The notes under the pieces are model-generated. The model did no database searches, was not told the origin of the DNA, and was given only the letters and a program-made list of their open reading frames with translations. The translations under genes were made by a program, and so were the position numbers. From positions 532,466-596,465 of the forward strand of contig CP064974.1 of NCBI GenBank assembly GCA_016699385.1: a stretch of DNA of 64,000 nt, read 5' to 3'. Source of the stretch: Candidatus Moraniibacteriota bacterium. Lineage in GTDB: Bacteria; Patescibacteriota; Minisyncoccia; Moranbacterales; UBA1568. This document shows positions 48,349 through 59,005 of the stretch, in pieces (the first letter of the stretch is position 1; each line of letters starts with the position of its first letter).

Positions 48349-48999
48349 TCAATTCAATTTGAGTACGTCAATTACCTTCCCATTCAAGACAAAATTGTCA
48401 TCTTCAGTGAGAAATATCGCCTTGTGTTGTGAATCGGTCGATTCGGGGAGAAGAACAATATTCTTTCCATCAACTGTCCGAAATGTTTTGACTGTCGCCA
48501 ATCCGTCAATCACGACGAGCACCCTATCCCCCGTCTTGTATTCCTTTGTATCGCCGTTGACCAAGACAAAGTCACCATCTTCAATTGTCTTCCCTTCTAT
48601 TTGTGCTTTGTTCATACTTGTCCCCGATATCTGTACCGCAAAAACATTTTTGCTACTCTTCACAATCTTGCGTGACACCTTGAGATACCCTTCGACATAT
48701 TCATCCGCAAAGGAAAGTGCCATTCCTGCATTCGCTGTTCCGAGTATGGGAATATTTACAAACATATTTCCGGTGAGTTCCTTGAGCTTTATACCGCGAT
48801 CCTCATGCGTCCGCTCGATATATCCCTTATCCTCAAGTTCATTGAGATAGACGAAAAAACTTCGCAAACTTTTGAGACGAAGTCCCTGGCGACCCGACTC
48901 TTCTTGAAGCTCGCGCACGGTTGGCATCTTCCCTCTTTCGGAGAAAAACTGTCGAATCGCTTGCAAAACTATTTTCTGCTTCGGCGTGAGAATATTCAT
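48349..48999 (-). CDS. lexA: LexA repressor (S24 peptidase)
   Basis: N-terminal winged HTH, ISGTSM (catalytic Ser), and the Lys-containing VKTFRTVDG C-terminal domain. A TATAAT -10 sits at 49017-49022. Confidence 0.85.
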   Translation of the reverse strand: MNILTPKQKIVLQAIRQFFSERGKMPTVRELQEESGRQGLRLKSLRSFFVYLNELEDKGYIERTHEDRGIKLKELTGNMFVNIPILGTANAGMALSFADEYVEGYLKVSRKIVKSSKNVFAVQISGTSMNKAQIEGKTIEDGDFVLVNGDTKEYKTGDRVLVVIDGLATVKTFRTVDGKNIVLLPESTDSQHKAIFLTEDDNFVLNGKVIDVLKLN

Positions 49000-49203: not shown

Positions 49204-51387
49204 CTACTGCCAACTACTCATCATGATACCGATATCCCTCGTATTCACAACACCGTCACTATTCACATCCGACGGATTATTCGTCACACTCTGGAGCCAG
49301 ACAGACACCAGGGCAGTGAAGTCCGAGAGAGAATACGTTTTGGCAAGCGTCTTCACAGATACACCACTCGTCTGCGCTGATGAATTGCCATCGGCATCAT
49401 AGGCAAGCACCGTGTATGAGTAGCTTGTATTCTGCGTGAGACCCGTGTCGGAATACGTCGTACCTGTCGTCACATCCGCAATCTGTGTTCCATTACGGAA
49501 GACCTTATAGCCCGTCACTGCGATATTGTCAGTCGAAGCAGTCCAGGAGAGATCAATAGCCGTCATGGAAACAGCTGTACCAGAGAGTCCAGTTGGAACA
49601 GAAGGTGCACTCGTATCACTGAGCGTCGTCACTGAGACAGGAGCTGTCTGTGCCGATGGATTCCCTGCGGCATCATAGGCAAGCACACTGTAAGAATACG
49701 CGGTTGATTTCGTCAGACCCGTATCAGAGTAGGACACCGCAGAGGTCGTCCCAACCTGTACTCCGTCACGGAACACTCGATAGCCAGCTACACCAACATT
49801 GTCAGTCGAAGCAGTCCATGAGAGATCGACAGTCGTCATAGACGTCGCTGTGCCAGAGAGTCCCGTTGGGACAGAGGGGGCAGATGTGTCGGAATTGGTC
49901 GCCGACGAAACAGCTGATGATTGAGACGATTCATTTTCTCGTGCATCAAGCGCCGTCACTCGGTATCGATAGGTTGTACTCGTAGTCAAACCTGTATCAT
50001 TGTAGGTGGTCCCGCTTGGCGTTCCTATTTGGGTATAGTTCGAACAACCCGATCCGGTACAACGGTAGACCTTGTATCCTGTCACCGCAATATTGTCAGT
50101 CGAAGCGGTCCAAGAAAGATTAATCTGGGAAATAGATACTGCTGTTGCGGAAACTCCCGTTGGCGTGGTCGGCGCCACTGTGTCTTGCCCGGTCGTTGCC
50201 GACACCTGTGTCCCTTGTGCCGAAGCATTTCCTGCCGCATCAACCGCCACAATGCGATACCGATACGTCGTCTCAGCAGTCAATCCCGTATCGCCATAGG
50301 TCGTCCCGCTTGGCGTCCCTATTTGGGTATAATTCGAACAGCTCGCTCCAGTACAACGGTAGACCTGATACTCCGTCACAGCAACATCATCTGTCGATGC
50401 CGTCCAAGCAAGATCCACTTTATCCATGCCGTTTGCTATCGCTGAGAGATCCGTAGGAACAGAGGGTGCCGTTGTATCAGCCAGTGTCGTCGCTGAAACC
50501 TGGCTCGATTGAGCCGACTCAACCCCACTCCCATTCACGCCACTCACGCGATAAGCATAGGCGGTAAGAGGAGCGAGTCCGGTATCTGTATACGATGGCG
50601 TCGCGCTCGTTCCAACTTGCGTGCCATTTCGATAGATTTTATAACTCACAATCGTTGAATTCGCCGAGGCCGCCGTCCAGGTGAGACCAACAGTTGTCGC
50701 AGTCTTCATCGGCGCGGCAAGTCCTGCAGGAACTTCGAGAGATGCTGTCACAGTGGTATTCGTCACACTATTCAAAATATCTGTTCCAAGCTTATCATCA
50801 AAAATGACGTCCGAATCGGTATAATTCCCATAGGCAACATACTGAATGGTGATGTTTGCCGAAGAAGGAACAATTGGCTGCAATGCACGGAATTGAAGCG
50901 TCGCAATCTTTCCTGATGCCGTATTCACCCCTGGCGTTGGCTTTGCAAGTGTAATAATTGCCTTGCCATTTGCCGCATCCTGCACGACAATCTCACACGG
51001 CTTGCTATTGTAGACACACGTATTCCCCGAAGAAAACGCGGAGGTCGACGTATCTATGTTGAGAAGCGAGAAATTTGCCGGGTTATACTCCACTACCGCC
51101 TTTACTGCCACCACATTATTGTTGTGCGTATCAACACTCATATCCACATTGAACGGCGTCCCTACGGTCGCCGAAGTCGATGATGGAGACAAGTGCAAAT
51201 CCGCCACTTCCCCCGATGTCTTTGCTGCGATAAACCACACAAGCACAATGAGTGCAACCGCCAGGAACACAATCGTAAACACGGTCATGCGATGCTCCGG
51301 TGCAGAGAGAAAACGAAAAAACCGGGAGAGCACACCTGCTCTTCCTGGCGAAACGCCACCTCCTTGCCCATAGGAAACTTCATCCAT
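49204..51387 (-). CDS. surface protein: cohesin-like domain, 5 fibronectin type III repeats, C-terminal dockerin-like repeat
   Basis: N-terminal TM/signal. Cohesin-like block VVAVKAVVEYNPANFSLLNID...GKIATLQFRAL. Five repeats of about 90 aa, each WTASTDN..Y.V(Y/F)R...Y.DTGLT..T.Y.Y.V.A.D..GN.S. C-terminal SDVNSDGVVNTRDIGIMMSSW (D-x-N-x-D-G-x-V-N dockerin repeat). Confidence 0.75.
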   Translation of the reverse strand: MDEVSYGQGGGVSPGRAGVLSRFFRFLSAPEHRMTVFTIVFLAVALIVLVWFIAAKTSGEVADLHLSPSSTSATVGTPFNVDMSVDTHNNNVVAVKAVVEYNPANFSLLNIDTSTSAFSSGNTCVYNSKPCEIVVQDAANGKAIITLAKPTPGVNTASGKIATLQFRALQPIVPSSANITIQYVAYGNYTDSDVIFDDKLGTDILNSVTNTTVTASLEVPAGLAAPMKTATTVGLTWTAASANSTIVSYKIYRNGTQVGTSATPSYTDTGLAPLTAYAYRVSGVNGSGVESAQSSQVSATTLADTTAPSVPTDLSAIANGMDKVDLAWTASTDDVAVTEYQVYRCTGASCSNYTQIGTPSGTTYGDTGLTAETTYRYRIVAVDAAGNASAQGTQVSATTGQDTVAPTTPTGVSATAVSISQINLSWTASTDNIAVTGYKVYRCTGSGCSNYTQIGTPSGTTYNDTGLTTSTTYRYRVTALDARENESSQSSAVSSATNSDTSAPSVPTGLSGTATSMTTVDLSWTASTDNVGVAGYRVFRDGVQVGTTSAVSYSDTGLTKSTAYSYSVLAYDAAGNPSAQTAPVSVTTLSDTSAPSVPTGLSGTAVSMTAIDLSWTASTDNIAVTGYKVFRNGTQIADVTTGTTYSDTGLTQNTSYSYTVLAYDADGNSSAQTSGVSVKTLAKTYSLSDFTALVSVWLQSVTNNPSDVNSDGVVNTRDIGIMMSSWQ
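49400..50710. repeat. nucleotide-level tandem repeats (~270 nt) encoding Fn3 modules
   Basis: attgtcagtcgaagcagtcca recurs at about 49531, 49798 and 50089. cgcttggcgt(c/t)cctatttgggtata(g/a)ttcgaaca recurs at about 50010 and 50300. The blocks are near-identical. Confidence 0.8.
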
Positions 51388-51515: not shown

Positions 51516-51878
51516 CTAGCGTGATCGATCAAGATACTGCATGAGTTCAATCAAGAGGTACCCTATAAATACGTATACAAAAAGCGCCAGAAGCGTCGAA
51601 AAATCAAATACGAACCCAACCACGTGCCCGCTCCGAAACACATCCGCAAACGGTGCAAGAAGCGGCGCGCTCGTCTCAGAAACAAATCGCACAAACGACG
51701 CCTCCGGATTCGCCCCAAAGAGCCGCAGGATAAAATGCATCCCGAGAAAAAATTCTATCGCGCCAAGCAACAACATGAGGAAGCTTTTAACAATACCCGG
51801 GAGAGACATAGGTACAGAAGTTTGAATTATTCTTTCTACAAATATACCACAAAACACCGCATTCCCTTGTATCGACAC
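51516..51878 (-). CDS. YggT family membrane protein
   Basis: FILRLFGANPEASFVRFVSETSAPLLAPFADVF fits the YggT/Ycf19 consensus. Two TM helices. Confidence 0.7.
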   Translation of the reverse strand: MSIQGNAVFCGIFVERIIQTSVPMSLPGIVKSFLMLLLGAIEFFLGMHFILRLFGANPEASFVRFVSETSAPLLAPFADVFRSGHVVGFVFDFSTLLALFVYVFIGYLLIELMQYLDRSR

Positions 51879-51939
51879 ATCGCTTCTTCCAGAGCCCGGT
51901 CAGAGCACCTTCGTGGAGAAAAAGTAAGTGTCTCTAGAA

Positions 51940-52069: not shown

Positions 52070-52537
52070 TCAGTCATAGCTCGCCCAAAATACCTTACAG
52101 CGATACTCCCATTCCTCCTGATCGCAGTGAATCTCTTCGGCTGTCATGCCCTGTTCTCTTACTCGAAATACGAGCTCTTTCTTCGTAGAGTTCCGCGCCA
52201 TATCGCCATAGAATTCATACACCAATGCTCGCATCTCTTCGATAAAGCCCTCCGGAAGAGGGATACAGCGTTCCGCTTCGTGGGTAATCTTCCGAAGAAG
52301 AGTGAAGCGATACATATTGTTCACGTTGAGTTCCTTCTTCAAATCCGCTTTACCCACCAAGTCGTATTTGCGAAGGAGGTCATCAAACGATTCAGAGAAA
52401 TCTTTGCTCCTTGGTTCCTCCCTGCCTTTAGAAGAAAATAAGAGGCAAACAAGAATCATAACTCCCAGAACGACTCCTGTACTAAAAAGGGTAAGTACGC
52501 CTGATACCATACCTGCTGTCAAAGAACTTTCATTCAT
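52070..52537 (-). CDS. small single-TM protein, candidate retron effector
   Basis: ATG at 52537 with SD ggaggt at 8-nt spacing; the ORF-track start at 52546 is a TTG. TM GVLTLFSTGVVLGVMILVCLLF, then a cytoplasmic domain of about 110 aa. The next gene on the same strand after the RT, 124 nt downstream. Confidence 0.5.
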   Translation of the reverse strand: MNESSLTAGMVSGVLTLFSTGVVLGVMILVCLLFSSKGREEPRSKDFSESFDDLLRKYDLVGKADLKKELNVNNMYRFTLLRKITHEAERCIPLPEGFIEEMRALVYEFYGDMARNSTKKELVFRVREQGMTAEEIHCDQEEWEYRCKVFWASYD

Positions 52538-52669
52538 GATGACCAACCTCCATATACGTTGCGATCCTCTTCTTTATGGTCTTTCCAAAAGAGCCTGTCA
52601 AGCTTGCCGTATTTCTTCCAAAGCCCTGACACAGTACCTTCGTGGAGAAGGAAGTCAAATGTCCATTTG

Positions 52670-53560
52670 CTAAAGAAATCTCTCCATGGTCACATTGTAA
52701 AAATTTTCCAACATCAGACCAGCCTCCCTATTGATGCTTTTTACAAAGCTAACCTTCCCTTGTACGCTAAGACGGTGTTCTGGCACAAAGTAACACAAGC
52801 CTTCCTCGATTTCACATTTTACGCTCTCAATGAAGAAGTCACTCAAATCAATTTTATCATTTACAACCAAGCCAGTAACATGTTGCGTTTCTGTACGATG
52901 AGCGATATGTTTCTTCTCCATGTTGAGCAAAAACCCTTCATGCCGAATAATTCCATCAACCATCCCTTTTCGGTAAGCACCTTCCACTTCCCTTCCGCCA
53001 GAAATAGTTATATCATCGAAGAAACGTGTATACCCAGCATTGATCCCCTTGCAAAGATCCCACAGTTTTGTGTCCAAATCCAACGCAACTACATTCGAAA
53101 GAAAGGGGCTAGTAGGCGCCCCTTGCGGAAGCTGATTTTCATATGTAGCTATTCTGACAATCCAACCCAGAGACTTCTGCGAGATATTAAGCCTTCTTCT
53201 TAAAGCTTTCAGCACTCTTGTGTTATGAATACTGGGGAAAAAGTCTTTTATGTCATAATTCAAAACAAACTCTTTGCCAACATGGGGCTTGGCATTTGTA
53301 ACAATTGAACGTCTGTCAACACCACCGTGAACGCACGGTAACAAAGAAATGCTTTTCTTCAGAAAAGTAAGAATTTTCTTTTGCAACAACCGCAAGTCTT
53401 TTCTTGGAATATTCAAAATCCTCTCGCTCATCCCTCCACTGCTTTTTTTCTTTGGAATTTTAATCTCGATATATAACCGTTTAATATTCGAGTAGAAAAA
53501 ACTTGCTTGTTTTTCGTCCAAGCCTAAGTTAAGCAAAAATTGTCTGTGTTCCGGATACAT
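52670..53560 (-). CDS. retron-type reverse transcriptase
   Basis: 296 aa. Block similarity to the Ec86 RT: IPKKKSSGGMSERILNIP (motif 0), NAKPHVGKEFVLNYDIKDFFPSI vs Ec86 NATPHIGANFILNIDLEDFFPSL, LPQGAPTSPFLSNV (motif 4), YTRFFDDITIS (YxDD-type, here FFDD), and TQHVTGLVVN (the retron VTG motif). No maturase/X or endonuclease domain. Confidence 0.85.
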   Translation of the reverse strand: MYPEHRQFLLNLGLDEKQASFFYSNIKRLYIEIKIPKKKSSGGMSERILNIPRKDLRLLQKKILTFLKKSISLLPCVHGGVDRRSIVTNAKPHVGKEFVLNYDIKDFFPSIHNTRVLKALRRRLNISQKSLGWIVRIATYENQLPQGAPTSPFLSNVVALDLDTKLWDLCKGINAGYTRFFDDITISGGREVEGAYRKGMVDGIIRHEGFLLNMEKKHIAHRTETQHVTGLVVNDKIDLSDFFIESVKCEIEEGLCYFVPEHRLSVQGKVSFVKSINREAGLMLENFYNVTMERFL

Positions 53561-54241: not shown

Positions 54242-55123
54242 ATTATCTTCGTAAAACTCCGAATTGATGTTCCCATCGTGCCTGCGGATTTCCCGCACAC
54301 GACGAGCTCTAATGCATCGTTTGCTTAAGTGCGTAGATACTACGCAATCCTTCATCTGTGAAATGGAGATTCTTGCGAATCATTTCGAAGATGACACAAA
54401 ACGTTTCAAAGTCACTTTTCTTTGAGCGTAACCTCAAAGCATTTCTTTTGAAGAATGGAATAATAACACGTTCCAGATGTTCTCTATTGGACACTTCATA
54501 GCGATAACATTGCTGATGATTGGCACGTCTATCTTTTTGAAAATACACATTGCCACATCCGAAATAGTCTTTCAGTTCATCGAGGACTTCTTTGTCTCGC
54601 TCGATCAACTTGAGAAAAAATCTCGGCTCAACTTTCGTCCGTCGCTTGACGCGCTTGTCCGAATCGGGATTTTTCACATATACTGTGAAGCTTCCCTCTC
54701 CATCCACAAGACCAACGATATATTCTGGTGTTATCTTTTCCATATGCATTGGAGTGAACCCTTCGTCCTGATAGAGATACCAGAAGTTACTATGATTCAG
54801 CTGACTTCTTACGCCGCGTAAGTTCCATTATTCAATGCTATTGTGATACAACATTGAAACAGCGTAAGATCTCCCGGGGTCATATATCTTTCTCTTCCTG
54901 ACATTCTGAAAACGCTTTGTATTGTATCTTCCCTCTGCTCACCACCTATCCAAAGGTCGATACCGTTTTCCGCCTTTCGACGGATAATCAGACTGCCATT
55001 TGCTTCCGAATCCTTCGCCATTTCCCTCGCGAGAAACGACTATTCTTCAGCTACGCCCCAGTTGACGAATCGGGGGGAGAGATTTGAACTCTCTAGAAAT
55101 ATATACTGCCCGGCGCTTTTATT
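54242..55123 (-). mobile_element. intron in 16S rRNA (probable group I) carrying LAGLIDADG homing endonuclease ORF
   Basis: Exon 1 ends CTTGTACTCAC (plus 55124-55134) and exon 2 resumes CGCCCGTCACACC (plus up to 54241). Joining them restores the universal CTTGTACACACCGCCCGTCACACC with a single A to T difference. The intron is 882 nt. Confidence 0.7.
54309..54749 (-). CDS. LAGLIDADG homing endonuclease (intron-encoded)
   Basis: YIVGLVDGEGSF is the LAGLIDADG motif. 146 aa, single-motif type, entirely inside the 16S intron. Confidence 0.85.
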   Translation of the reverse strand: MHMEKITPEYIVGLVDGEGSFTVYVKNPDSDKRVKRRTKVEPRFFLKLIERDKEVLDELKDYFGCGNVYFQKDRRANHQQCYRYEVSNREHLERVIIPFFKRNALRLRSKKSDFETFCVIFEMIRKNLHFTDEGLRSIYALKQTMH

Positions 55124-55189
55124 GTGAGTACAAGATCCGAGAACGTATTCACCGTGACTTGGCTGATTCACGATTACTAGTGATTCCGG

Positions 55190-55228
<39 letters not shown>

Positions 55229-56765
55229 GCCGGTTTTTTGGGATTAGCTCCGTCTCGCGACTTGGCAACCCTTTATACCGGCCATTGTAGCACGTGTGTC
55301 GCCCAGGGTGTCAGAGGGCCATGCTGATCTGACGTCATCCCCTCCTTCCTCCCCGCACCCTTTTCCCGATTATTTTCGGTAAACAGCAACAAAGAAATAC
55401 TGCCAAAGGCAACGTCTCTTCATTCTGCTCAGAAAAAAGGTGCGGGGCGGTCTCGCGTGATACGTGTAACACGCGACAGGGGTTGCGCTCGTTTCCCGAC
55501 TTAACGGAACATCTTACGACACGAGCTGACGACGACCATGCAGCACCTGGTCTAGCGGCCTCGAAGGACTTCTTATTTCTAAGATCTCCAGCTAGATTTC
55601 AAACCCTGGTGAGGTTCCTCGGTTATCGTCGAATTAAACCACATGCTCCACCACTTGTGCGGATCCCCGTCTATTCCTTTGAGTTTTAAGCTTGCGCTCG
55701 TACTTCCCAGGCGGCACACTTAACGCGTTAGCTACGGCACGGAAGGGGTCGATTCCTCCCATACCTAGTGTGCATCGTTTAGGGCGTGGACTACTGGGGT
55801 ATCTAATCCCATTCGCTCCCCACGCTTTCGTGGCTCAGTGTCAGATCGGTGCCAACCAGCTGCCTTCGCCTTTGGTGTTCTTCACGATATCAACGCATTT
55901 CACTACTACACCGTGAATTCCACTGGTCTCTCACCGCCTCAAGTCGTGCCGTTTCAAATGCAGTTCTTCGATTGAGTCGAAGGATTTGACATCTGACTAA
56001 CACGACCACCTACCCACCCTTTACGCCCAATAAATCCGGATAACGCTTGAGGTCTCTGTATTACCGCTACTGCTGGCACAGAGTTAGTAACCTCTTATTC
56101 TCCAGGTACCGTCATCGAAATTCTTCCCTGAAAAAAGTAGTTTACGACCCGAGGGCCTTCATCCTACACGCGGCATCGCTCGTTCAGGCTTTCGCCCATT
56201 GACGAATATTCTCGACTGCAGCCTCCCGTAGGAGTTTGGGCAGTGTCTCAGTCCCAATGTTGGGGGCCATGCTCTCACACCCCCTACCCGTCAGAGCCTT
56301 GGTAGGCTTTTACCCCACCAACTAGCTGATAGGACGCAGGCTGCTCCTCAAGCGATAAATCTTTACTCCGTAGAGCACATCGTGTATTAGCTTGTCTTTC
56401 GACAAATTATTCACGACTTGAGGGAACATTCCTACGTATTACTAACCCGTTTGCCGTGGGTCTAAACCCACTCGACTTGCATGCCTTATCCATGCCGCCA
56501 GCGTTCATCCTGAGCTAGGATCAAACTCTCAATAAAGATGATATTCCGAGAGCATCCGGTAAACCGAACTCCACCACTCATCTTATAATGGCAGATAAAC
56601 TCTCGAGAAGTTGCTTCCCTTCCCCTTGCGAAGATAAAGAAGACTTAAATAGATCCATGTAACTATTGGATTGACCGCAAAAAATTGCAATCATACTTTC
56701 GCAAATTGTTAAGGGGCTCTTGGCGATAAAAAAGAAGGCGGAAAGCTTTCTTCCTTCGCATGTGC

Positions 56766-57517: not shown

Positions 57518-59005
57518 ATGAGTCCGATTCGTCGGCGCGTGTTTTTTTGGGCACTCACACTCACCTTTCTCGTGACAACTCCCATTATCGTGCTCTTCCT
57601 CATGGGATACCGCTACAGTTTCGAGCGGGGCATTTTCATATACACGGGTTCCGTTTCCATCCAAGCAAACCCCGCACAAAACATCGATATACAAATAGAC
57701 GGCAAGCCTGTATCCGCCGACAGCAATCGCCTCAACAGCTCCTATCATATCGAAGGTATTCTTCCGGGGAAACACACGGTTTCTGTTTCCGCACCCGGAT
57801 TTAGCACCTGGTCCAAAGAAATCACCGTCCGAAGCGGTATCGCCACTGAATTCTGGAATATACTTCTTGCCCGAACTGAATACCCCCAGAAAGTACTCGC
57901 TTCTTTCAAAGATGGTCAGGCATTTTTTCCTCTCCCCCAGAAGAATCAAATTGCCATAGTATCAGAGAATGATCAAGAAACAACCGTCACCGTGCTCAAC
58001 ACAACAACCGGAAATCGAGAGCAAGTATTTAGCAGCACGGACTTTTTCCTCAGCAAGGACGCTCCAAGAAATGCTTTGCGGTGGTCTTCACGAGATGCAA
58101 CACATTTCCTCCTCTCCCTTCTCTCTCGAGAAACACAAGAGGAGCATACATTTCTTATCCAAACAGACATAGCAACCACAACTGATATCAAAGATATTGT
58201 AAACGTTCCACATCCACGAGAAGTACGATGGAATCCGAATGCCAACACGATTCTCTTCCTCTCGGGAGCAACGCTCTTCAGTCTCCCTATAGACACGCCC
58301 CTTCACGAGACAGCACTGTCCGACAATATCGAAAGCTACGACACCGTTGGAAACACACTCATCGCACTTGAACCAAAAACCGGCATACTCTACCAATTCC
58401 CACTGGGGGATCCCGCTCAAAAAAAGCAACTCACGACCGCTCCTCCGGAAGGATTCTCTCACAAATACACCACGCCATTCTCCCTCATCGCCTACGACGA
58501 AACGAGAATTACTCTTCTCAATAATGGCACAGGAGACCTCTTCCTCTTCAATAAAGGACAGGGAGGCGAATGGTTCAAAAGCCTCTCAAAAGACGCAAAA
58601 GGCGTGCAGTTTTCCGACGATGGAAAAAAAGTTCTCTACTGGACTGATTGGGAAATATTCACATTCTTCACGCGAAAATGGGAAGTACAGCCCGTCCGTC
58701 AAGAAAATGACCGTCTCGATATCGGACGATTTTCAAATACCATACATGATGTCCAATGGACCAAAGACTACGAGCACATCATCTTCTTCTCCGGGAATGA
58801 CATACGAGCAATCGAACTCGACGACCGTGGAAGTCGAGATATGGTCACGGTTCTCAATCTTCCCTCCGTGCCACTTCAGATATCGAGTATCGGCTCAAAA
58901 AACGAAATTCTCTTCCTTCTACCGGACACACAATCAACATCTCTTTCTACACTTTCTTCCATTACATTTCCAGAGCCCCTCGGCTTCTTCGGATTTGGAC
59001 AATAG
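57518..59005 (+). CDS. membrane-anchored PEGA-domain protein with C-terminal beta-rich domain
   Basis: N-terminal TM, PEGA-like stretch IEGILPGKHTVSVSAPGFSTWSKEITVRSG, followed by a domain of about 350 aa. Confidence 0.6.
   Translation: MSPIRRRVFFWALTLTFLVTTPIIVLFLMGYRYSFERGIFIYTGSVSIQANPAQNIDIQIDGKPVSADSNRLNSSYHIEGILPGKHTVSVSAPGFSTWSKEITVRSGIATEFWNILLARTEYPQKVLASFKDGQAFFPLPQKNQIAIVSENDQETTVTVLNTTTGNREQVFSSTDFFLSKDAPRNALRWSSRDATHFLLSLLSRETQEEHTFLIQTDIATTTDIKDIVNVPHPREVRWNPNANTILFLSGATLFSLPIDTPLHETALSDNIESYDTVGNTLIALEPKTGILYQFPLGDPAQKKQLTTAPPEGFSHKYTTPFSLIAYDETRITLLNNGTGDLFLFNKGQGGEWFKSLSKDAKGVQFSDDGKKVLYWTDWEIFTFFTRKWEVQPVRQENDRLDIGRFSNTIHDVQWTKDYEHIIFFSGNDIRAIELDDRGSRDMVTVLNLPSVPLQISSIGSKNEILFLLPDTQSTSLSTLSSITFPEPLGFFGFGQ

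Follow-up and report, generated by a model that had tools for sequence, protein, structure and literature searches.

The gene and its modules

We analyzed a 64-kb stretch of the genome of a Candidatus Moraniibacteriota bacterium (hereafter, the window), with a focus on the gene at 49204-51387 on its minus strand. An initial annotation, made from the sequence alone, had described the product as a surface protein of a tiny-genome bacterium, with an N-terminal signal or transmembrane segment, a cohesin-like block, five fibronectin type III (Fn3) modules of about 90 amino acids (aa), and a C-terminal calcium-binding repeat of the dockerin type. The listing of open reading frames (ORFs) gives a single ORF of 727 aa plus a stop codon with exactly these coordinates, on the minus strand. 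The host is indeed a tiny-genome bacterium: Candidatus Moraniibacteriota belong to the candidate phyla radiation (CPR), and this genome is ~1.1 Mb. The protein consists of an N-terminal stretch, a hydrophobic run, a block of ~160 residues, five repeats that each open with a P-x-x-P motif, and a tail of 46 residues. The initial reading of the architecture was essentially correct and the reading at the DNA level was incorrect. The features of the gene, and what each rests on, are:

49204..51387, minus strand: complete coding sequence (ORF listing, exact-sequence look-ups, and dN/dS against two orthologues)
51289..51387, minus strand: N-terminal tail of ~33 aa, residues 1-33, presumably cytoplasmic (sequence, flank charge, and conservation in orthologues)
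51223..51288, minus strand: hydrophobic signal-anchor or transmembrane segment, residues 34-55 (Kyte-Doolittle scan)
50734..51222, minus strand: predicted divergent cohesin, residues 56-218 (homologues, family profile against the PDB, AlphaFold2 model, and Foldseek)
50479..50733, minus strand: Fn3 module 1, residues 219-303 (Pfam fn3 and module alignment)
50185..50478, minus strand: Fn3 module 2, residues 304-401, 98 aa (Pfam fn3 and module alignment)
49891..50184, minus strand: Fn3 module 3, residues 402-499, 98 aa (Pfam fn3, module alignment, and sliding windows)
49618..49890, minus strand: Fn3 module 4, residues 500-590, 91 aa (Pfam fn3 and module alignment)
49345..49617, minus strand: Fn3 module 5, residues 591-681, 91 aa (Pfam fn3 and module alignment)
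49207..49344, minus strand: dockerin-like C-terminal module, residues 682-727 (Pfam score, alignment, profiles, AlphaFold2, and Foldseek)
49234..49269, minus strand: intact 12-residue Ca2+ loop DVNSDGVVNTRD, residues 707-718 (sequence and tail alignment)

The protein is identical to QQR77051.1 at NCBI, which is encoded on a 1,111,322-bp contig of a Candidatus Moraniibacteriota metagenome-assembled genome (MAG). It was deposited as "fibronectin type III domain-containing protein": the record names it by its Fn3 domains alone and leaves the cohesin unannotated. The identical 727-aa protein is also encoded on an independent Logan assembly (SRR11674038). Because the same protein is found on the Logan assembly and on the 1.11-Mb NCBI contig, the gene is not an assembly artefact, which the initial annotation had named as a risk for the repeats; the repeats are also too diverged to collapse.

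Scans with Pfam and NCBIfam identified no catalytic domain among all 727 residues, and no lectin or carbohydrate-binding-module signature in the protein. Reading the sequence, we noticed pairs of cysteines in the cohesin block and in Fn3 modules 2 and 3 (F2 and F3), which together with the anchor-like N-terminus would fit an extracytoplasmic location. Overall, the gene is real and ordinary-looking, and the protein is a divergent, CPR-specific version of known module types. As for the three Pfam families that were originally suggested for it, fn3 passes, and Cohesin (PF00963) and Dockerin_1 (PF00404) fall below threshold.

The cohesin module

Although the block itself does not match PF00963, it can be identified as a cohesin, because many of its homologues match, because profiles of its family find cohesins in the PDB, and because its modeled fold matches cohesins. 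An exhaustive phmmer search against 1.84 billion representatives found 251 relatives of the domain (counted as clusters at 50% identity). Among 101 homologues that we scanned (E = 5e-58 to 4e-10), 61 match PF00963, with a best E-value of 4.6e-36; these matches were scored per homologue, without a separate comparison of their overlap with the aligned cohesin domain. Smaller searches gave one fragment (word index, with the N-terminal domain) and seven matches (domain profile).

When the cohesin-family profiles were compared to all PDB chains, the matches at E ≤ 0.01 were cohesins alone (E = 3.8e-4 to 1.6e-3). The best match is CohA2 of Clostridium acetobutylicum (6kg8, E = 3.8e-4), over positions 5-161 of 164, and the type II cohesins of Clostridium thermocellum SdbA were matched at about 1e-3. 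An AlphaFold2 model of the block, from a 30-sequence alignment, is all-beta, with a mean predicted local distance difference test (pLDDT) of 95.9 and a predicted template modeling score (pTM) of 0.90. The modeled block has the flattened beta-sandwich fold of ~140-160 aa that is expected of a cohesin. In a Foldseek comparison of this model to the PDB, the top 24 matches are all cohesins (E = 3e-9 to 2e-4, with template modeling scores, or TM-scores, of up to 0.78), and unrelated beta-sandwiches appear in the list from rank 25 on.

Together, the transitive homology, the family profiles, and the modeled fold indicate that the N-terminal block is a divergent but genuine cohesin. The initial annotation had accepted that failed searches with hidden Markov models (HMMs) would undo the assignment. 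Taken at face value that is what happened for Cohesin, but the homologues, the profiles, and the modeled fold overturn it, so that the cohesin-like call stands without a PF00963 match of its own. The module has a loop between Cys124 and Cys131 and the conserved motifs AKPTPGVNT and DSDVIFDDxxGTDIL. Across the family the motifs read AKPTPGVNT and DSDVIxDDGxGTDIL; the two-cysteine loop is specific to this subfamily.

The dockerin-like tail

The C-terminal Ca2+-binding motif that was originally reported is present (DVNSDGVVNTRDIGIMMSSW, residues 707-726). The tail comprises a helix (residues 687-695), a linker, one intact EF-hand Ca2+ loop, and another helix (residues 716-724), and its positions D31, D35, and D42 are invariant in 20 aligned tails. 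A full dockerin would have two tandem loop-helix segments of ~22 residues, and the tail does not: the second loop is intact and both helices are kept, but the site of the first loop carries a one-residue insertion, in a stretch that mostly belongs to the end of the last Fn3 strand. So the assignment as a dockerin-type repeat holds for homology and for the two-helix fold; it does not hold for the first loop, which is degenerate, or for the Dockerin_1 score (14.1-18.9 bits, as against 22.9).

Some members of the cohesin family have canonical two-loop dockerin ends, such as DLNLDGYVNSIDVGMLMSSWG...DINQDGIVNSVDAGIMMSQW, and the tail of our protein can be aligned to these column by column. When compared to the PDB, a mixed profile of the tails finds dockerins at E = 8e-11, and in a strict profile of the degenerate subfamily, dockerins rank first (E = 3.5e-7). 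In an AlphaFold2 model of residues 677-727 (pLDDT 88), there are two helices. The top 12 Foldseek matches to this model are all dockerins (query TM-score, TMq, 0.56-0.72), and the best of these is 2y3n_B (TMq 0.72, with a root-mean-square deviation of 0.8 Å over 41 columns). These alignments and the model suggest that the tail shares descent with two-repeat dockerins and has a dockerin-like two-helix fold. We describe it as a dockerin-derived module with one predicted functional Ca2+ site, rather than as a full member of PF00404.

A family of CPR proteins with cohesins

We examined 150 representatives of the relatives of the cohesin domain. There is one cohesin in 145 of these proteins, two in 4, and three in 1; the relatives with two or three cohesins resemble scaffoldins. 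The distal domains are varied, and include Fn3, Big_13, PKD, beta-helix/NosD, FG-GAP, PG_binding_1, and PEGA. One or two C-terminal dockerin-type Ca2+ loops are present in 27 of the 150. The nearest relatives (P0003, P0005, and P0009) have the same tail and three to five Fn3 modules. At the other extreme, P0131 (228 aa) has a signal peptide, the cohesin, and the same tail, and nothing else. Its signal peptide is textbook-like, ending in ...ATARA|A.

The relatives that come with a genome name are from Moraniibacteriota, Moranbacteria, Parcubacteria, or the "Patescibacteria group." A word-index search with the tail profile returned 12 short fragments, including some from Berkelbacteria, Moranbacteria, and Portnoybacteria.

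Four members (P0003, P0005, P0168, and P0169) lack a catalytic domain but are named "chitodextrinase" by JGI/IMG, a name most likely carried over from the similarity of their Fn3 modules to those of chitinases.

Conservation across orthologues

We found orthologues in two other MAGs, at loci that we call L002 (726 aa) and L003 (724 aa). Each encodes the full set of anchor, cohesin, five Fn3 modules, and tail, and in the locus search their cohesin domains were 95% and 86% identical to that of the window protein. (The record for L002, CAYQPQ010000017.1, is titled "uncultured Bdellovibrionales bacterium," yet it has this 95% identity in the cohesin domain and the same LexA neighbor. Mis-binning or mislabelling of this contig is the probable explanation.)

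The synonymous divergence (dS) between the window genome and the orthologues is saturated, at about 1.3-1.6, while the ratio of nonsynonymous to synonymous divergence (dN/dS) for the whole gene is just 0.04 and 0.11 against the two orthologues. Also, when the window genome is compared to L002, every Fn3 module is nearest to its positional orthologue (78-82% DNA identity, versus 71% or less to any paralogue). Because dS is saturated, dN/dS is low, and the modules are orthologous by position, the five-module architecture must be older than these lineages and under purifying selection.

The constraint is not uniform. By part, dN/dS is 0.02 and 0.05 for the cohesin, 0.05 for the tail, and 0.18-0.21 for F2 and F3. 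The amino-acid sequences show a similar pattern: the cohesin shares 95% and 87% of its residues with the two orthologues and the tail 93% and 85%, while F2 and F3 share 62-90%. By these measures, constraint is strongest on the cohesin and the tail and weakest on F2 and F3; the Fn3 modules appear to behave like spacers.

Fn3 modules and their repeats

The five Fn3 modules are clear. Pfam fn3 (PF00041) matches five stretches, as initially annotated, scoring 127.6 bits where 25 would suffice (E = 2.2e-37), and a repeat search finds periods of 273, 294, and 294 nt (91 or 98 aa), with 61-77% identity to the reference copy. The PDB sequence matches for this region are to the Fn3 domains of chitinase A1, titin, and receptor phosphatases (RPTPs); for module 5, the top match is the Fn3 domain of chitinase A1 (1k85). 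F2 and F3 have inserts with two cysteines each, CTGASC (Cys345 and Cys350) and CTGSGC (Cys443 and Cys448).

The initial annotation also held that these modules are encoded by near-identical repeats of ~270 nt, which would imply recent duplication or gene conversion and a potential for phase variation by changes in repeat number. The modules are far from identical. In a codon-aware alignment, pairs of modules share 49-71% of their DNA, 32-53% of their third codon positions, and 40-72% of their amino acids. Modules 4 and 5 (F4 and F5) are the closest pair, at 71% DNA identity, and module 1 is the most divergent, at 49-54% to the others. Tandem Repeats Finder, which needs ~70% similarity, reported no Fn3 array.

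What does repeat is short. The 21-mer ATTGTCAGTCGAAGCAGTCCA, which was said to occur three times, has two exact copies and a third with one mismatch (0 are expected by chance). No exact repeat in the gene is longer, and this 21-mer codes for WTASTDN, the most conserved peptide. A 35-nt block was said to occur twice; the best such pair lies in F2 and F3 (at 50003 and 50297), and it matches at 33 of 35 positions instead of exactly. The best 100-nt window between repeats is 83% identical. In codon-shuffled controls, the longest exact repeat typically spans about 10.6 nt and never exceeds 14 nt. As that of the gene is 21 nt long, the repeats are real and far beyond chance. They nevertheless look old: the alignments indicate that the modules diverged anciently, and the architecture has not changed across saturated synonymous divergence, so the proposal of recent duplication is not supported.

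Gene conversion fares somewhat better. In sliding windows, identity between the centers of F2 and F3 is 88% (over 60 nt) in the window genome, 82% in L002, and 46-54% in L003. Conversely, identity between the 5' parts of F4 and F5 is 90-95% in L003 versus 75-83% in the window genome. Such short, lineage-specific homogenized patches suggest occasional short-tract gene conversion, as they are the pattern expected of it, and they are its only sign here.

Nor does the copy number vary among close relatives. Our comparison covers the two orthologous MAG loci and three sequenced members of a cluster at 90% identity, and we found no variation: every full-length close relative that we read has five modules. 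Lengths of 708-727 aa are listed for the 29 members of this cluster. In its three sequenced full-length members, which have five modules, the differences in length are due to the calling of start codons, and the lengths listed across all 29 members fit the same explanation. Three or four Fn3 modules are seen in more distant relatives. Thus, the copy number of Fn3 modules does change, but, to judge from these sequences, over long evolutionary distances alone.

We noticed a single exception to the five-module rule among the close relatives that were read. P0169, from the cluster of the L003 orthologue (on a 108-kb JGI contig), has 568 aa and leaves the frame inside module 4 (...RSTRLLVHGARL), so that module 5 and the dockerin tail are missing. 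This form may be a natural truncated or frameshifted allele, or a sequencing error.

The N-terminus

The predicted N-terminal signal or transmembrane segment is there: the top 19-residue Kyte-Doolittle window is residues 36-54 (mean 3.06), within a hydrophobic run of ~20 residues. Just ahead of it is a positive flank, RFFRFLSAPEHR, with 3 K+R versus 1 D+E in the preceding 15 residues. Residues 1-33 are 81% and 65% identical to the two orthologues. The hydrophobic segment is followed directly by AA|K, which gives a candidate signal-peptide cleavage site (FIAA|K). Comparable hydrophobic segments are found in 128 of the 150 family representatives, a median of 8 residues ahead of the cohesin. A hydrophobic run of ~20 residues with a conserved 33-residue extension is more typical of an uncleaved signal anchor, and this is how we provisionally read it.

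Comparison with known systems

The best cellulosomal matches to the cohesin module are C. acetobutylicum CipA CohA2 (6kg8 and 6kgc-f), C. thermocellum SdbA type II (2bm3 and 2b59), and a type II cohesin from Bacteroides cellulosolvens (2y3n). It resembles these in its predicted beta-sandwich fold (TM-scores of 0.6-0.78), in profile similarity over the whole domain (5-161 of 164), in its size (~150-160 aa), and in being paired with a dockerin-type module in the same system. It differs in that it is just 12-19% identical to them, is missed by PF00963, has its own motifs and the two-cysteine loop, and lies directly behind a membrane anchor, rather than within a multi-cohesin scaffoldin or beside SLH domains. 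It is also from a CPR host, and no cellulases are linked to the gene. A cellulosome component seems the wrong description, as there is no catalytic or carbohydrate-binding domain in the protein and no other cohesin or dockerin ORF within 64 kb.

Like canonical dockerins (PF00404; for instance CelS, 1daq, or 2y3n_B), the tail has a full D-x-N-x-D-G-x-x-N-x-x-D second loop followed by a helix, a two-helix arrangement, and a C-terminal placement. Unlike them, its first loop reads S-V-K-T-L-A-K-T-Y-S-L-S-D, where the relatives have D-L-N-L-D-G-x-V-N-S-x-D. Another difference is that both helices end in Trp (..VSVW and ..MMSSW), which is a signature of this CPR group. Single-binding-mode dockerins are known, and the binding modes of dockerins have been reviewed (PMC12484212). 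In contrast to the symmetric dual-mode dockerins, the window tail would be expected to have a single mode.

Adaptor scaffoldins, such as ScaA of Acetivibrio cellulolyticus and ScaA of Ruminococcus flavefaciens, have one or more cohesins and a dockerin in one chain. (Two of the fold matches, 3ghp and 3l8q, are presumably structures of cohesins from A. cellulolyticus ScaA.) Similarly, our protein has both partner modules in one chain and could link a chain of cohesin-dockerin contacts. But adaptor scaffoldins, which recruit enzymes, have several cohesins and lack a membrane anchor, whereas the window protein has one cohesin, a stalk of five Fn3 modules, a membrane anchor, and no known cargo.

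Cohesin-dockerin pairs outside of the cellulosome are well established; an example is the NagJ-NagH toxin complex of Clostridium perfringens (2ozn, 2jh2, and 2jnk). The NagJ and NagH modules are among our weaker profile and fold matches, and they too are a cohesin and a dockerin that act outside of cellulose degradation. NagJ-NagH links secreted glycoside hydrolases, however, and the window protein is anchored and has no enzyme. Peer et al. 2009 (FEMS Microbiol Lett) reportedly surveyed cohesin and dockerin modules across the three domains of life; the lineage of the window protein was sequenced later than that.

Closer to home, Southlakia epibionticum, a cultivated member of the Saccharibacteria, has essential envelope proteins with a dockerin (SEML1_0315) or with Fn3 (SEML1_0890) (PMC10633639). 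These share with our protein the Patescibacteria envelope, dockerin or Fn3 modules, and a proposed role at the cell surface or host interface. This comparison is by description. Moraniibacteriota are not Saccharibacteria, and in S. epibionticum the domains are on separate proteins and a cohesin is not mentioned. Our literature search, which covered a single library of papers, found none that describes cohesins in CPR.

Proposed role

We propose that this is most likely a membrane-tethered, non-cellulosomal docking protein that builds or links assemblies at the cell surface. It would remain attached to the cytoplasmic membrane, so that the cohesin forms its base and the dockerin its tip. Since an Fn3 module is about 3.5 nm long, the five modules would form a rod of roughly 17-20 nm. 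The distal one-loop dockerin would dock into a cohesin in a Ca2+-dependent manner, probably with a single binding mode, because just one dockerin repeat is intact. Its partner could be other copies of the same protein, arranged head-to-tail (on the same cell or on another cell), or other envelope proteins that bear a cohesin or dockerin. Docking would thereby build or cross-link a surface assembly, and perhaps also serve for contact with other cells or a host.

That cohesin-dockerin docking is the working principle seems to us about an even call, on sequence and modeling grounds. If there is docking, then we give roughly equal odds to self and non-self partners. The core of the idea is suggested by the family itself: P0131 has little besides these two modules, and both are retained whether a relative has 3, 4, or 5 Fn3 modules. 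The strongest constraint, too, falls on the cohesin and the tail. We also considered a more specific form of the proposal, namely a CPR-specific self-assembling structure, in which the distal dockerin, with Ca2+, plugs into the membrane-proximal cohesin of another molecule. We think that this is unlikely. It would give a lattice or loops if the partner molecule is on the same cell, or a tether if it is on another cell, and we are just as tentative about these outcomes.

Several observations weigh against docking. Neither end is recognized by its Pfam model: PF00963 has no match with the whole protein (at E ≤ 1) or with residues 55-217 alone (at E ≤ 10), the NCBIfam scan of the cohesin block has none either, and Dockerin_1 remains below its 22.9-bit cutoff, with 14.1 bits for the whole protein (E = 0.054) and 18.9 bits for the tail (E = 0.0017; this match spans positions 16-52 of 57). 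In the degenerate first Ca2+ loop, S, T, A, and S have taken the place of the ligands at positions 1, 3, 5, and 9, a loss that may impair the folding or binding of a canonical dockerin. With the strict tail profile, the match to dockerins is to a single EF-hand (the second half) only, and EF-hands of calmodulin follow at about 1e-3. The small size of the domain leaves the tail with weak Foldseek E-values (0.085 or worse), and the alignment that was given to AlphaFold2 for the tail held true two-loop dockerins, which biases the model towards a dockerin fold. Most members of the family (123 of 150 representatives) have no dockerin-like tail, so the cohesin base may bind another ligand. Searches of the 64-kb window with local HMMs built from the cohesin and tail alignments found no other cohesin or dockerin ORF. 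Finally, cleavage at the candidate site FIAA|K may free the protein from the membrane.

If the cohesin fold were just a base and the EF-hand tail a Ca2+-stabilized cap, then the protein might instead be an adhesin whose stalk or tip binds a host polymer or glycan. The degenerate first loop of the dockerin would fit, as would the makeup of most relatives, which combine the anchor and cohesin base with varied distal domains and no dockerin. The essential dockerin and Fn3 proteins in the envelope of Saccharibacteria could be read the same way, as their authors speculated that host glycans are targeted (PMC10633639). We doubt it, though, since it is the tail and the cohesin that are most constrained, not the Fn3 modules; the minimal relative, with cohesin and tail, has nothing further to bind a host with; and the Pfam and NCBIfam scans gave no lectin or carbohydrate-binding-module signature. 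Alternatively, the signal peptide might be cleaved, and the protein might be a soluble, secreted, bivalent linker that bridges cohesin- and dockerin-bearing partners, much like an adaptor scaffoldin. P0131, with its textbook signal peptide, the AA|K right behind the hydrophobic segment of the window protein, and the family's early cohesins (the lower quartile of cohesin starts is at about residue 31, which is compatible with plain signal peptides) all allow for this. The length of the hydrophobic run and the conserved 33-residue extension point instead to an uncleaved signal anchor, and we consider a soluble linker to be quite unlikely.

A protein that varies in phase or size, by recombination between near-identical Fn3 repeats, seems very improbable. 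The homogenized patches (F2-F3 and F4-F5) and the distant relatives with 3 or 4 modules are what one could cite for it, but modules that are 49-71% identical, with no exact word longer than 21 nt and no array for Tandem Repeats Finder, offer little to recombine. Furthermore, the two orthologous loci and the three sequenced full-length cluster members have kept five modules, and each module in the window genome is nearest to its positional orthologue in L002 although dS is above 1. We put next to no weight on a glycan-degrading enzyme. That idea would come from names: "chitodextrinase" is the source name for the orthologue cluster, P0003, and P0005, and the top NCBIfam match is exoglucanase CbhB (E = 9e-108). 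However, the CbhB match has 361 bits against a cutoff of 1950 bits, its listed best stretch is in the Fn3 modules alone (residues 396-590), and the matches to chitinases in the PDB fall on their Fn3 domains. Once the domains are accounted for, no residues remain for a catalytic domain, and this accounting over the 727 residues refutes the enzyme reading.

Neighboring genes

A YggT-family gene (51516-51878) and a gene for a LexA-type repressor (48349-48999) flank our gene, and all three are on the minus strand. The LexA-type repressor, which has LexA_DNA_bind and Peptidase_S24 domains, is immediately downstream; it has kept this position in L002 but not in L003. Other neighbors in the window include radical-SAM enzymes and a retron-type reverse transcriptase (RT). 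Because synteny is lost in L003, no conserved neighbor points to a partner for the docking protein.

The RT (52670-53560, minus strand, 296 aa, with a QGAPTSP motif) is 1.3 kb from the gene. It matches the PADLOC models RT-Protease_XI and RT_III-A (E = 1e-66 to 1e-63), and it matches the NCBIfam model for retron St85 at E = 3.5e-53, which is below the cutoff of that model. After the RT is a 158-aa ORF (52070-52546, minus strand) with an N-terminal hydrophobic segment and no family match, which could be an effector. The RT and the 158-aa ORF together look like a retron-like defense module in a CPR genome. A 37-nt direct repeat, TTCTTCCAGAGCCCGGTCAGAGCACCTTCGTGGAGAA, is found at 51884-51920 and 52613-52649; the copies are 86% identical and have self-complementary ends. 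They bracket the 158-aa ORF, as one copy directly follows the RT gene and the other the ORF itself, and they could be a pair of terminators, a cassette boundary, or a retron-related element. We also considered that the RT might belong to a diversity-generating retroelement that targets our gene. We rejected this, as the RT matches retron RT models, and we found no pair of template and variable repeats that links the RT region to the gene.

Farther away, there is a complete bacterial 16S rRNA gene (55077-56536, minus strand, 1301 bits). There are no 23S rRNA, 5S rRNA, or tRNA genes anywhere in the 64-kb window. As the 16S rRNA gene is without a 23S or 5S rRNA gene in 64 kb, the rRNA genes appear to be unlinked. 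Near the rRNA gene, a 495-aa ORF (57518-59005, plus strand) with PEGA and CarboxypepD_reg-like domains is a probable envelope protein. (PEGA domains are also found in two relatives in the cohesin family.)

Implications for CPR envelopes

How CPR bacteria (Patescibacteria) build their envelopes and attach to their hosts is largely unknown. In the one member of the Patescibacteria that is genetically tractable, envelope proteins that bear dockerin and Fn3 domains are essential (PMC10633639). Here, we found an entire family of CPR proteins in which a cohesin, so far unannotated, directly follows the membrane anchor or signal peptide. Its members currently go by the name of Fn3-domain protein or, wrongly, chitodextrinase. 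The idea of a phase-variable repeat locus was attractive, but it is unsupported, and our analysis corrects it. Some members also have a matching dockerin-type tip, which provides concrete and testable docking pairs for the study of CPR surface biology. If dockerin tips do plug into the membrane-proximal cohesins of other molecules, then this family, with its anchor, cohesin, and variable distal domains, would be a modular system for envelope building and attachment in ultra-small bacteria, and its dockerin-tipped members would be cross-linkers or host-contact tethers.

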